A stretch of DNA of 64,000 nucleotides from an uncultured Gammaproteobacteria bacterium (GCA_964355175.1 CAYHBZ010000002.1:119189-183188); one strand, 5' to 3'; positions 32,049 through 64,000 are shown, counted from the first letter of the stretch. Made by a program: numbers and translations. The notes: a model not told the origin generated them from the letters alone.

Positions 32049-32750
32049 ATGAATTTGAAGGATTTCGCCAATCAGTTCGGTATCTCGGCCATCGCTCGTC
32101 GGCACTTCGCCTATCGCAAGCCGGTGTCCGATGCCGAACTGGGCGGGTACTCGACCCGTGGTGCGTTGACCTATATGCGGGCGCTCGAAGCGTCGCGCAT
32201 GGGTCTGTCGCACCTCGAAGCCCACAAGGCTTTCGAACAGGGTCGGCAGTTGGTGGAGCTGGGCATCACGCCCGGCTTGATCATCACCGGTTGCGATCAG
32301 CGCAACCAGGATGGTGGCCACGCCACGGCTGAAGGCATCTCCTTGGCGGGTACAACGCAGCCCTCGGTGTTCACCAGTCCCGCCGTCACCTATCCGCACT
32401 ACACCTCTTTCGAGATGGTGAAGTCGGCTCTGGAGACGCATGGCGATCTGGCTGTTCACCGCGTGCTCGCTGGCCAGCTCCACGGTATCTGGTCCGAGCC
32501 GGCGTTGGTCTTCGACGCTCGCATCCTCGCTGCGGTTCAGGCGGATTATGGGGTCGACGGCCCCGTTCTCTTTGACCTGAATTTCGAACAGATCACGTTG
32601 CTCTACTTTCGCCTTGTGCGGAAGTTGGAGCTCTGCGAGATCCCGTTCGATGACAAAGCGTGGATGCCGAAGTTGGGCGGTGGAGTCGTGATCTCCGCTG
32701 ACCGCAAGACCGCGATGGAATTCGCGGCTGACCTGACGGTCGTTGAGTAG
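32049..32750 (+). CDS. hypothetical protein, 233 aa, encoded in a high-GC island (island A)
   Basis: Stop-free ORF with high-GC codon usage (CTG/GGC/GCC/CGC) in a ~38% GC genome. SD GAGGA 6 nt upstream. No family recognised. Confidence 0.6.
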   Translation: MNLKDFANQFGISAIARRHFAYRKPVSDAELGGYSTRGALTYMRALEASRMGLSHLEAHKAFEQGRQLVELGITPGLIITGCDQRNQDGGHATAEGISLAGTTQPSVFTSPAVTYPHYTSFEMVKSALETHGDLAVHRVLAGQLHGIWSEPALVFDARILAAVQADYGVDGPVLFDLNFEQITLLYFRLVRKLELCEIPFDDKAWMPKLGGGVVISADRKTAMEFAADLTVVE

Positions 32751-38035: not shown

Positions 38036-38202
38036 ATTTTGCTGAAATTAGCGTTTAAAATGGATAAAAAATGACTAGTAAAATTATACCATAAGGCCTT
38101 TTTGGGCGCAAGGCTAAAATGACTGTTTTTGGGTTGACATTTTGGAGATTTTATAGTAGTTTTTAGTCATGGCCGCAATCCCGCGGTTGGAGATTACAAG
38201 TC

Positions 38203-38340
38203 ATGATGCCTGGGGCTGTGAAAATTCTTCCTGAGTGGATAGGTTTTGTAGTTGATTTCATCATCGATCATCCCAAGAAATTGGGTTTTCTGATCGGCCT
38301 GCTGATTGTAGGAGGCGCCGTTTGGTGGCTCTGCTCTTGA
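38203..38340 (+). CDS. possible 45-aa small membrane peptide
   Basis: MMPGAVKILPEWIGFVVDFIIDHPKKLGFLIGLLIVGGAVWWLCS with a C-terminal TM. Lies in a locally GC-richer patch with GGAG upstream. Speculative. Confidence 0.3.
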   Translation: MMPGAVKILPEWIGFVVDFIIDHPKKLGFLIGLLIVGGAVWWLCS

Positions 38341-38468
38341 GCCTCCATCCGTCAACGCGCTCCCCCGACTTGGTCGGGGGCGGGAAGGAAGTTAAAACCA
38401 CCCACTACTCACTTTGGGGCTAAGATTTGGCCATAGAGTGAGGAGGATTTTCGGGTGGTTTTGCTTTC

Positions 38469-39746: not shown

Positions 39747-39762
39747 TATAAAAAATTAGTTA

Positions 39763-39790
39763 AAAACCGTCCTAAAGTTAGGGCGGTTTT
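39763..39790 (+). terminator. rho-independent terminator after rpsA
   Basis: AAAACCGTCC-TAAAGTTA-GGGCGGTTTTT. Confidence 0.6.
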
Positions 39791-39857
39791 TATATTGACT
39801 TTTTATTATTTTTGTAGTACTATTTTTTAGGTTTCGTGGTCTAATAGTGGGGGTGGT

Positions 39858-40328
39858 ATGCAAGCGAAAAGGATGGGTCTAGCGTCTGATCGTCTCGCCG
39901 GAATCCTGTATCCAGTGGAATCACTGGTGGTGCAAGACAAGCCGGTGTCCGCAAACTTCGGACTGGATCGAATCGAGTTCGTTCCGGTTCTCAAACAGGA
40001 GGAGAGTTGTATCAGCGGGAAGGAGTTTTTAGGACGCGTGAAGACCTTGGGAGGTGAATTCGGTCTCTGTGACATTGAGGTGTTGATCGGTGACCAACAG
40101 AACCTGTCGACGGATCTGCGTGACAAGGAGATCTACTTCGTCGCGGCTCGAGTTTTTAATCCAACCACGCAAGAGATCAGCATTCCCTACATGGCGTTCA
40201 GCGAAAATCGCCAGAGTTGGGTCGTCCGTTTCCATTCGGTGGGAATCTATCGTGGCGATGGCGATGGCTGTGCCGTCATGGTCTCGATTTTCTACTCGAA
40301 CAGTTTGGTGCCCAGGTTTAAAGCCTGA
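39858..40328 (+). CDS. hypothetical protein, 156 aa, in high-GC island B
   Basis: GC ~55% compared with the host ~38%. RBS context CTAATAGTGGGGGTGGTATG. A host-like promoter TTGACT-17-TACTAT lies upstream. No family recognised. Confidence 0.55.
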   Translation: MQAKRMGLASDRLAGILYPVESLVVQDKPVSANFGLDRIEFVPVLKQEESCISGKEFLGRVKTLGGEFGLCDIEVLIGDQQNLSTDLRDKEIYFVAARVFNPTTQEISIPYMAFSENRQSWVVRFHSVGIYRGDGDGCAVMVSIFYSNSLVPRFKA

Positions 40329-40385
40329 ACCACCAAATTAACCCCATTCATATGTTGAGTTTGCTCCATATGGATGGGCGGGATT

Positions 40386-40450
40386 TAAAATCACCCACTA
40401 TCGCTATTTAAAAATATTTTAATGTTTTTAAATAGCGTGGGTGATTTTTT
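40386..40450 (+). terminator. long inverted-repeat terminator after island B
   Basis: AAAATCACCCACTATCGCTATTTAAAAA..TTTTTAAATAGCGTGGGTGATTTTTT. Confidence 0.45.
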
Positions 40451-40565
40451 ATTTGAAAAGGCCTTTACTCTTGATTATTTGGAAGTTTTCAGGTAGAATC
40501 ATTGTATTAATTACTACTATATAATAGGATAGTAAAGCGACTGATTTCCTATCTAACTTAAATTT

Positions 40566-42612: not shown

Positions 42613-43191
42613 GTGAGCAAGCAACTGTGGATCATGTGTCTGGTGGCGATCGTGTCTGGCGGTTGCGCTGACTTCAGCGTGCCTTCCGATCTTCATTTCG
42701 CCTGTCCTGAGCAGTCGTCAGATTGCAATGGGTCGGCGGACTGCCAGATTGGTCAGGGTGACATCGTGTCGCACGACACGACCGGCGACATCCAGCCGGT
42801 GCAACTCGGCAACGAGTGTACGCAGAACACCGACTGCGACGACGACCAATGCTGGACCGGCGACTACTGTGTGCTGGGTAAGTGCAAACACGCAGGCTAC
42901 GGCGGTTGTGGCGGTGGTCCAGGCGAGTGTGAAGTCAATTCGGACTGTGATGACGCCAACACCTGTACTACCGACAGTTGCTTCCCGCTGTACAGCTCCT
43001 GCCAGTATCAGGCTTTGCCGTTTCAAGTCTGTGAGGACGGCAATACTTGCTTCGCTGACAAGTTGTGCACCATCGAAGGTGTGTGTGCGGGTACGAACCT
43101 GTGCGATGACGACGACCCCTGCACCTACGATTATTGTGATGATTTCAAGAAGTGCGCGCACAAAGGGCCGATCACCGGCTGTAACCCCTGA
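42613..43191 (+). CDS. Cys-rich lipoprotein with four Myxococcus-type cysteine-rich repeats, in high-GC island C
   Basis: GTG start with SD AGGAG. Signal plus lipobox VSGGC. Four repeats of the C..DCDD..C..D.C....C type (e.g. CEVNSDCDDANTCTTDSCFP) resemble the myxobacterial disulfide repeat. GC ~60%. Confidence 0.6.
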   Translation: MSKQLWIMCLVAIVSGGCADFSVPSDLHFACPEQSSDCNGSADCQIGQGDIVSHDTTGDIQPVQLGNECTQNTDCDDDQCWTGDYCVLGKCKHAGYGGCGGGPGECEVNSDCDDANTCTTDSCFPLYSSCQYQALPFQVCEDGNTCFADKLCTIEGVCAGTNLCDDDDPCTYDYCDDFKKCAHKGPITGCNP

Positions 43192-50880: not shown

Positions 50881-51053
50881 AAAAAAATACCGTACAATTT
50901 TCACCTGATAAAAGTTCGCATAATTGGCTATAAATTTTCGTTATGGCCCTAAGGGTAGGGCCATTGTCCCGACTAAGTCGGGACACCACTCAAATTTACT
51001 TACGCCAATTAGGGGCTCACTTTTATGCGGTAAAAATTGTACGGTATTTTTTT
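50881..51053. mobile_element. MITE-like element copy 1: ~130-bp conserved core with imperfect TIRs, inserted in the loop of a bidirectional terminator palindrome
   Basis: The host palindrome AAAAAAATACCGTACAATTTT (50881-50901) and AAAAATTGTACGGTATTTTTTT (51032-51053) flank the core 50902-51031. The core is ~95% identical to 60961-61081. The core ends CCTGATAAAAGT..CATAATTGGC and GCCAATTAGG..ACTTTTATGCGG are inverted. Confidence 0.55.
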
Positions 51054-56706: not shown

Positions 56707-56832
56707 AATTTCTAAATTATATCAGGATCTTGACCTTTTGGCTATTTTCTAGTTATATTCCATATAGTTATGTTGGCCGGTAGCGTAGGGTACGCTGATT
56801 CGGCTTAGTGATCGGTCTCTAAGGGGGTGGTC

Positions 56833-57099
56833 ATGCGTAAGCAGACTGGAGTGGATGTGTTGAACACCCGCGAATTCAAGGAGGCTTTGGCGGAGGTTCT
56901 GCAGAAGGCTTTTCCTGACTGGCAGGACGAGACCGAGATCGATCAATTGTCTGTTTGGACGATCTTCGTCGAGCTCAAGTCGGCGCTTGGTCGTCGTGGA
57001 CAGAGCGAAGAACCGGTCAACTTTCCTCGGGTCCACGACATGACGGCTCAGGAGCTCATCCTGAACATGTGCCAGGCGTATGGAATTGTCGCGCCGTAG
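56833..57099 (+). CDS. hypothetical acidic protein, 88 aa, in high-GC island D
   Basis: GC ~58%. RBS context TCTCTAAGGGGGTGGTCATG is nearly identical to that of island B. The track ORF starts at an upstream GTG (56827). Confidence 0.5.
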   Translation: MRKQTGVDVLNTREFKEALAEVLQKAFPDWQDETEIDQLSVWTIFVELKSALGRRGQSEEPVNFPRVHDMTAQELILNMCQAYGIVAP

Positions 57100-60934: not shown

Positions 60935-61107
60935 CCGGATAAGATGTCTAATAATTTTTACCTGATAAAAGTTCGCATAATTGGCTATAAATTTTCGTTA
61001 TGGCCCTAAGGGTAGGGCCATTGCCCTTTCAGGGCACCACTCAAATTTATTGACGCCAATTAGGGGCTCACTTTTATGCGGAAAAAATTATTAGACATCT
61101 TATCCGG
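60935..61107. mobile_element. MITE-like element copy 2, inserted in the loop of a different host palindrome
   Basis: The host palindrome CCGGATAAGATGTCTAATAATTTTT (60935-60959) and its reverse complement (61083-61107) flank a core that is ~95% identical to copy 1. The internal hairpin is GCCCTTTCAGGGC here, against GTCCCGACTAAGTCGGGAC in copy 1. Confidence 0.55.
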
Positions 61108-63624: not shown

Positions 63625-63715
63625 ACTCTATATTTTAAGCTAAAAATGATTTTGCGTCAATTGGTCATAAAATTGACTTTTGCCCACAATTTAGATAAAA
63701 TTAAGCCATAAAAAT

Positions 63716-64000
63716 ATGCAATTGATTATTCCCGCCAGTCAAGTCAACGATCCGGAACATTTTATCCGCCGATGTGGATATGGACAGCACCGCACGCGTA
63801 CCGGTGAGACTAGCTATGTGAAGCGCGTCCATCGCGACTGGTACCCTCGTTTTCATGTGTATGTGAAAAAACAAGGTGAAAATTTTGTTTTTAACTTGCA
63901 TTTGGACCAGCGCGCTCCGGTATATGAAGGGCAGACCGCTCATGCGGGGGAATATGACGGTACAGTAGTAGAAAAAGAAGGAGAAAGAATTAAAAGTTTT
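63716..64000 (+). CDS. hypothetical protein, 5' partial at window edge
   Basis: ATG at 63716 with an open frame to the window end (95+ codons), so it is absent from the ORF track. The overlapping minus-strand 80-aa ORF is probably spurious. Confidence 0.35.
   Translation, partial: MQLIIPASQVNDPEHFIRRCGYGQHRTRTGETSYVKRVHRDWYPRFHVYVKKQGENFVFNLHLDQRAPVYEGQTAHAGEYDGTVVEKEGERIKSF

Follow-up and report, generated by a model that had tools for sequence, protein, structure and literature searches.

The window, that is, the whole stretch of 64,000 nucleotides analyzed here, contains between rpsA and ftsH a gene for a protein of 156 amino acids (39858..40328, plus strand, ATG start). Relatives of the window genes carry the labels Candidatus Magasanikbacteria/Patescibacteria. 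The gene is preceded by the intrinsic terminator hairpin of rpsA (39761..39792, plus strand), which was detected by a terminator scan and as an inverted repeat, is nearly invariant across four orthologous loci, and has a T-run that leads into the −35 element of the promoter that follows. This predicted sigma-70-like promoter of the 156-aa gene, TTGACT-17-TACTAT (39795..39823, plus strand), shows 9 of 12 consensus matches in a promoter scan; in the orthologues, the −35 element does not vary, and TAnnnT is kept in the −10 element. A G-rich, Shine–Dalgarno (SD)-like box, GTGGGGGTGGT (39846..39857, plus strand), abuts the ATG, and its GGGGG core is present in four of four orthologues. The end of the unit is given by a promoter-like site for ftsH, TTGATT-17-TAGAAT (40471..40499, plus strand; promoter scan). 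An earlier, sequence-only reading of this stretch had described the ORF, the rpsA terminator, and the promoter; all three exist, and the two signals are conserved in the orthologues. Judged by these predicted signals, the ORF most probably is a genuine single-gene transcription unit. The protein lacks a signal peptide, and single-sequence searches against Pfam, PHROGs, PADLOC, and NCBIfam gave no significant match, in agreement with the lack of recognizable motifs stated before. Likewise, Rfam at the gathering threshold and at E <= 1 returned only sub-threshold noise for the gene region. The ORF has a GC content of 52.2% in a window of 40.5% overall. The high-GC island reported to begin at 39840 is hence real as an anomaly, with a GC content below the ~55% that had been stated. 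Nearly all of the anomaly resides in third codon positions: GC1/2/3 of the ORF are 0.56/0.38/0.62, compared with a GC3 of 0.38 in rpsA and 0.37 in ftsH, and its GC3 is a robust outlier (z = 5.5) against the median of 0.38 for 52 long ORFs of the window.

Two hairpins follow the gene. The first one is GC-rich, lies 15 nt past the stop codon (40343..40378, plus strand), and had been overlooked by the sequence-only reading. It folds and is conserved in four orthologues, herein with a stem that is kept and a loop that is variable. The second one, found by inverted repeats and folding, is a long hairpin with a subsequent T-run that forms the intrinsic terminator of the gene (40387..40455, plus strand), as had been proposed. 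Its outer arms at 40387-40398 and 40437-40448 flank inner arms at 40402-40418 and 40421-40437. The terminator is 86–99% identical among the orthologues, the CDS only 65–87%; both hairpins together are 78–95% identical as opposed to 65% for the CDS, meaning that the non-coding flanks are more conserved than the coding sequence. The joint fold of the 3′ region has a z of −7.7 compared with shuffles. Pairing is preserved by every stem substitution among the four orthologues, including one compensatory and three one-sided changes in the terminator stem. The conserved hairpin behind the stop codon could mark a site that is still recognized by something. Another GC-rich stretch (51–52%) is located 5′ of rpsA at 38126-38460 and comprises a promoter-like TTGACA, an SD (GGAG), a hydrophobic 45-aa ORF (38203-38340), and a long hairpin terminator, of which the 5′ arm, AAAACCACCCACTAC, resembles the arm AAAATCACCCACTAT of the terminator of the 156-aa gene.

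A search of 5.8e9 proteins returned nothing beyond the identical protein and three homologues at 80, 63, and 61% identity, all three of them encoded between rpsA and ftsH (L004, L001/L002, and L003). Orthologues in the same slot speak against the island being recent, as had been assumed. The sequence-only reading had named homologues of normal host composition at this locus as its refutation; homologues are indeed present there in sister genomes, but their composition is abnormal as well, with a GC content of 52–54% and a GC3 of 0.60–0.66. Seven contigs encode exactly this protein, and it is the only sequence of its 90% cluster. Among the orthologue genomes, rpsA is 98% identical with a dS of ~0.35–0.42, and ftsH is 93–96% identical with a dS of 0.7–0.9. 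The 156-aa gene, at only 64–86% identity, changes approximately 3–20 times faster than its flanking genes: its dN amounts to 0.08–0.29 compared with 0.011–0.046 in rpsA, ftsH, and a gene with a lactamase fold. Its dN/dS ranges from 0.12 to 0.6, with 0.12–0.22 for distant pairs. Differences between the orthologues are distributed over the codon positions as 43/31/77, which is a coding-like pattern, and the reading frame is kept with in-frame indels. In the closest pair (window and L004), the first 45 codons are almost identical, and dN/dS is 0.5–0.9 for residues 46–141, with ~0.9 in residues 101–141. Selection on the gene is thus purifying, though relaxed.

Only two genomes, L009 and L008, which are more distant, lack the gene at the locus. 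In the nearest outgroup, L009, with an ftsH of 75% identity, rpsA is directly followed by ftsH and the gap is empty (L009:5642-6000), which bears out the remark that a gene is unexpected in this place. The gap of L008 (L008:3261-5869) is occupied by an unannotated 234-aa ORF and an M23/Kelch protein and contains no homologue of the 156-aa gene. In L001 (L001:6666-11946), the orthologue is accompanied by a 50-aa gene and a 1707-aa gene without a Pfam domain. Because its contents differ in this way, the rpsA–ftsH gap can be regarded as a site where lineage-specific genes accumulate. The 156-aa gene has been inherited vertically within one Magasanikbacteria-like genus.

Distant relatives become visible by a profile of the four orthologues, which was searched against 1.84e9 representative proteins. 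It yielded 47 relatives with E values of 1e-8 to 1e-3 and 20–30% identity at the protein level. Hence, the 156-aa protein is no orphan, as it had been called. Family members are mostly 136–253 aa long; one contains four tandem copies of the domain and another one two. The family alignment is full-length, with the consensus '...LEFVxFLxxGExxIxGxEMRxRAxxLxxNLGLxDAxxLLxxQxxIPxxLRxKxIVFPGTxLR..G...VPxLxW..GRWxLxF..L....RLxRxK'. No domain was found by a Pfam scan of all 48 members, no match by a sequence search of the PDB with the family profile, and none by Foldseek of the predicted model against PDB and BFVD; a scan of viral contigs gave no confirmed match. The AF2 model of the 156-aa protein reaches a pLDDT of 89.7 with the family alignment, on which this confidence depends, since the four orthologues alone gave 36.6. 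In metagenomes, 64 family loci were found, largely in groundwater. One member, L103:5848-6375, has no template repeat (TR) and possesses an Asn-rich and adenine-rich C terminus (A fraction 0.26; '...NPDGNRNVAYLNWNGKQWYLNFNWLENDWNSNDRLPRLRE'), which looks like an undiversified, TR-like variable region (VR).

Part of this family belongs to diversity-generating retroelements (DGRs). In 10 of 31 family loci, the family gene is followed on its strand, at a distance of one or two genes, by the gene of a reverse transcriptase (RT) of 300–370 aa, matching RVT_1 with E values of 1e-22 to 1e-26, and a bAvd gene sits between the family gene and the RT. In each cassette examined, the last 106–131 nt of the family gene are repeated ~485 nt downstream with 81–91% identity. 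Such VR/TR pairs occur in L093, L097, L098, L136, and L108, and in the five pairs inspected, the mismatches fall on TR adenines in 11 of 11, 17 of 17, 22 of 23, 18 of 19, and 16 of 18 cases. Of all mismatches, 87/88 affect codon positions 1–2. Mismatches almost exclusively at TR adenines are the defining signature of DGRs. The TR-linked family members are bona fide DGR variable proteins. The family link was tested in a non-circular manner: hhalign aligned the four orthologues with a set of 11 TR-linked targets over window residues 32–129, with a probability of 98.1% and an E value of 6e-14. The 156-aa protein is a divergent member of this so far nameless family of small DGR variable proteins from the ultra-small CPR/Patescibacteria. 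About half of the family loci with sufficient flank have no TR. Targets of CPR DGRs have been described as having no recognizable domains and as probably novel C-Lec variants ('clade 2' of Roux et al. 2021, PMC8144416, where Paul et al. 2017 is cited on CPR targets).

The region behind the VR carries structures of its own. The hairpin at 40343-40378 of the window takes the position of the first inverted repeat 3′ of the VRs in DGR-linked relatives, and the layout of two hairpins after the stop codon is also present in L097, L098, L129, L125, and L108. The hairpin could be what is left of a structure at the target site, or it could open a tandem pair of terminator hairpins. Furthermore, one to five copies of CCTTGG/CTTGG/CTCGG occur within 75 nt past the stop codon in 12 of 13 TR-linked CPR targets, where ~0.26 are expected, often as GGATCCTTGG ... 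GGTCACTTGG. Examples include L093:3149-3223, L097:4051-4125, and L158:4178-4252; the latter is from a Magasanikbacteria genome and belongs to a different target family with CCTTGG/CTCGG repeats behind the stop codon. The repeats are also found after some TR-less family genes with intact VRs (L112, L114, L132, and L133). They are possibly the target-site recognition element of this CPR DGR clade.

The high GC3 is common to the family. Of 38 loci in which two or more flanking ORFs are available, 36 have a family gene with a GC3 above that of its flanks, by +0.23 on average; in L093, for example, the family gene reaches 0.85 next to neighbors with 0.41/0.34. The excess over the flanks amounts to +0.32 in TR-linked members, +0.16 in TR-less members, and +0.24 in the window clade, herein with a Mann–Whitney p of 0.01 between TR-linked and TR-less loci that are not phylogenetically independent. 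At third positions of the family, A is depleted 0.50-fold and T 0.63-fold. Adenine avoidance was considered as the cause of the high GC content and rejected: as T3 (1.6-fold) is depleted along with A3 (2-fold), the effect is a general one on GC3 and not specific for A. Compared with the RT of the same cassette, the target GC3 is higher by +0.18 to +0.54 in ten cassettes of the family. Three further cassettes, from Giovannoni-, Jorgensen-, and Parcubacteria and with unrelated targets, show target/RT values of 0.74/0.44, 0.75/0.45, and 0.67/0.39, which corresponds to about +0.28 to +0.30. Over 14 CPR DGR cassettes with at least four unrelated target families, target GC3 was seen to range from 0.54 to 0.85 and the GC3 of the RT in the same cassette from 0.31 to 0.50, a difference of +0.18 to +0.54 (L093, L097, L098, L099, L104, L108, L125, L126, L136, L158, L159, L160, L161). 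The RT lies at or below the GC3 of the surrounding host genes. The excess appears to hold for CPR DGR targets generally.

A strong SD is the second trait of this kind. SD-like boxes precede 23 of 31 family genes, often as 'AAGGAGnnTCGTC-ATG', as opposed to 35 of 217 flanking ORFs and 4 of 45 host ORFs of the window. Host genes of the window are nearly devoid of an SD, with a GGAG/GAGG/AGGA/GGGG box in these 4 of 45 long ORFs. Judged by its spread over the family, the combination of high GC3 and strong SD represents a set of inherited family traits and not marks of a recent foreign origin. No earlier report of target GC3 far above RT GC3 was found in the searchable literature, and GC3-rich DGR targets beside AT-rich RTs, with solo homologues keeping part of the excess, may be new. 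It can be proposed only tentatively, and with more doubt than confidence, that DGR targeting in CPR bacteria leaves a mechanistic signature made up of GC3 enrichment over the whole gene and, in SD-poor genomes, a strong SD. Targets would be kept at a GC3 of 0.55–0.85 and the RT of the cassette at 0.31–0.50, and once the element is lost, the excess would decay into 'fossil' GC3 islets like the 156-aa gene. If true, genes that are or once were hypermutated could be picked out by simple scans of base composition, and the cause would add a new aspect to DGR biology. Candidate causes would then be a GC bias in the repair of repeated cDNA-mediated conversion, retro-conversion of the target mRNA with itself as template, or the need for a stable duplex around the homing site. 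Should the pattern hold at scale, it would offer a cheap way of finding DGR targets and ex-targets and raise the mechanistic question of how DGR activity or selection shapes synonymous sites.

The copy in the window is solo and degenerate. Its region homologous to the C-terminal VR of the family, as derived from the family alignment and a comparison of C termini, comprises residues ~98–156 (40149..40325, plus strand). Herein the canonical motif W..GGRW.L.F.WLD...RL.R.K is lost and replaced by 'AFSENRQSWVVRFHSV', followed by an insertion of 14–17 aa and by 'LVPRFKA'. The adenine fraction of this region is 0.18 in the window and 0.18–0.24 in the clade, like the rest of the gene, compared with 0.07–0.15 in TR-linked VRs. 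Profile searches for RT and Avd together with tblastn found neither of them in the 64-kb window or in the flanks of the relatives; the window reaches −40/+24 kb around the gene and is part of a genome of ~954 kb. A TR-like copy was not found in the window or the relatives' flanks by blastn-short and repeat searches, and when the last 110 nt of the gene are compared with the window without gaps, the closest stretch has 57/110 mismatches. CCTTGG/CTCGG repeats downstream of the gene number zero in the window clade. An RT search gave >8000 CPR matches, and among the best 120, none is from the 953,736-bp contig carrying the gene. The differences to the closest orthologue, with 20/14/20 by codon position, are spread over residues 46–141 and are unlike the DGR pattern.

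Family membership, the lack of a nearby TR, Avd, or RT, and the decayed VR therefore make it most likely, with a probability of roughly 0.6, that the 156-aa gene is an ex-target, meaning a 'fossil' of DGR diversification, or an otherwise non-diversified solo paralogue. A past linkage to a DGR and a present inactivity throughout the genome can be inferred, and the protein probably still works as a putative binding module. The promoter at 39795-39823 would drive a monocistronic mRNA, and the G-rich SD would draw ribosomes to the GC-rich start region. The predicted product would be a cytoplasmic protein of 156 aa with an N-terminal helical part and a C-terminal β domain, the latter being the presumptive homologue of the DGR-diversified ligand-binding surface. 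Transcription would stop at the second hairpin and its T-run, and the first hairpin would either be the relic or analogue of the inverted repeat after VRs or act as a tandem terminator. In canonical members, the last ~105–130 nt are rewritten from the nearby TR by Avd and RT with adenine-specific errors, thereby diversifying the ligand-binding surface on a probably C-type-lectin-like fold. The window gene and its three orthologues would form a solo branch of the family that is now altered by ordinary, fast point substitution. What was formerly an 'orphan foreign island' can now be interpreted as a binding-module protein that is a descendant or sister of hypermutated CPR proteins. Such proteins are thought to act at the interface with hosts or phages, and the window gene would be a version frozen at a housekeeping locus.

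Alternatively, the gene may never have been a DGR target; its product would then be an ordinary CLec-like binding protein, one of the older pool that supplied the recruits for DGR targeting. The many family loci with enough flank and no TR (about half) are consistent with this, as are the insertion and the conserved C terminus LVPRFKA that the window clade has to itself. However, the gene shares the GC3 excess and SD of the family, both of which are stronger in TR-linked members, as well as the two-hairpin 3′ layout, and its homology runs through the strands equivalent to the VR. An origin outside DGR targeting is thus considered unlikely.

An active role as a remote target, diversified in trans by a DGR elsewhere in the genome and recognized through the hairpin behind the stop codon, is quite improbable, even though several observations would fit. 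The gene is homologous to bona fide targets, the hairpin is placed like the inverted repeat of DGR-linked relatives and classic DGRs, and DGRs are present in Magasanikbacteria (L158). Canonical VRs and CCTTGG repeats persist at several family loci without a TR, which may themselves be remote targets, and the dN/dS of ~0.9 between the window and L004 in residues 101–141 could reflect diversification. Within −40/+24 kb, however, there is no TR, RT, or Avd; the VR motif is decayed and interrupted by an insertion, its A content is not depleted, and the CCTTGG repeats are absent. Third-position changes are as many as first-position changes, and differences begin far 5′ of where a VR could lie. Seven assemblies share one and the same sequence, with a single-member 90% cluster, and Wu et al. 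2018 (PMC5758913) encountered remote targets (>100 kb) only in lineages other than CPR.

A recently imported foreign cassette with a common origin with island D, and perhaps with other GC-rich islands, was the interpretation of the sequence-only reading; it is largely refuted and very improbable. The composition and the SD are indeed atypical for the host, and the gap, being empty in L009 and filled with other genes in L008 and L001, shows by its varying contents that the slot does gain genes. The likeness of the ribosome-binding sites of island B (the 156-aa gene) and island D holds for 9 nt: GGGGGTGGT occurs exactly twice in the window, at 39849 before the 156-aa ORF and at 56823 before island D, with an expected count of 0.25 and 2 of 100 shuffles reaching two occurrences. 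Upstream alignment reveals nothing beyond it, two of the four orthologues have GGGGGCAAT instead, and the proteins are unrelated, which leaves the claimed common origin without a basis. A common origin of islands A–D was rejected as well, as their proteins are mutually unrelated and their flanks do not align. GC3-rich ORFs of the window each have an SD (GAGGA at 32049, GGGGGTGG at 39858, AGGAG at 42613, and GGGGGTGG at 56833); since all four carry a G-rich SD, the likeness is better read as convergence or a shared requirement. A need of GC-rich mRNAs for a strong SD in an SD-poor genome would explain it better than descent. Import is further contradicted by synteny in four genomes at a flanking-gene dS of 0.35–0.9 and by borders at rpsA and ftsH that contain no integrase, direct repeat, or tRNA. 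No relatives were confirmed in viral contigs, and no family member was seen in a high-GC genome. As homologues show the same GC3 excess at 36 of 38 loci, composition does not date an import, and as the co-resident RTs of DGR cassettes are host-like or lower in GC3, it does not track transfer either. For anomalous GC in AT-rich, SD-poor genomes, recent transfer is hence not a necessary reading.

Further elements of the window were observed alongside. Island C (42613-43191) occupies the slot after ftsH and encodes, at a GC content of 57% and a GC3 of 0.70, a Cys/Asp-rich lipoprotein, in which 'SGGC' resembles a lipobox (VGC in relatives). The gene has syntenic counterparts at L003:6158-6724 and L004:3715-4266, is too diverged for tblastn, and its antisense strand has been annotated by gene callers in L004 and L005. 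Other GC3-rich ORFs are located at 32049-32750 (233 aa, GC3 0.77), 56833-57099 (88 aa), and 63701-63943 (minus strand, 80 aa, GC3 0.58); they are homologous neither to each other nor to the 156-aa protein, and the first two have no match in the family libraries searched. An intergenic element of ~140 nt is present in two copies 10 kb apart (50896-51038 and 60953-61089) that are 92–97% identical; it contains the hairpin GGCCCTAAGGGTAGGGCC and has no match in Rfam.

Finally, the ORF could be open by chance if the GC-rich DNA were non-coding, for instance the template of a structured RNA, and happened to lack stop codons. This would agree with GC-rich DNA leaving several frames open in an AT-rich genome (two antisense ORFs, 99 and 68 aa long, and one of 83 aa in an alternative frame overlap the gene) but is refuted by the kept frame with in-frame indels, third-position-biased substitutions with a dN/dS well below 1, and protein relatives at 20–30% identity, next to a confident predicted fold and no Rfam match above threshold.

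Among known systems, a horizontally acquired islet resembles the locus in its atypical composition and translation signal and in a gap that varies between lineages. It differs in that the gene is syntenic in congeners and has neither mobility genes nor border repeats, and the atypical composition is common to homologues in dozens of unrelated low-GC hosts. The solved C-type-lectin folds of the DGR variable proteins Mtd, TvpA (2y3c), AvpA (5ioo), and TaqVP show only twilight-level similarity to the window protein, with no match by Foldseek or PDB sequence search. The protein is half the size of TvpA and Mtd, and unlike DGR proteins with a C-type-lectin fold, it has no FGE-sulfatase-type signature (no Pfam match). 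With the remote DGR targets of Treponema and Lineage 4 (PMC5758913), it has in common that a gene of a target family is located away from any RT. What defines such a target is a TR that matches it except for A-to-N differences; no TR of this kind was found for the window gene within 64 kb. In comparison with the CPR/Patescibacteria DGR targets (PMC8144416), the window gene is without TR, Avd, and RT in 64 kb, its degenerate VR contains an insertion, CCTTGG repeats do not follow, and no variants exist in seven assemblies. Yet it corresponds to these targets in being small and free of a signal peptide, TM segment, or Pfam domain, in combining a high GC3 of the gene, a strong SD, and a pair of hairpins past the stop codon, and in its profile-level homology to members with a proven VR, TR, Avd, and RT.
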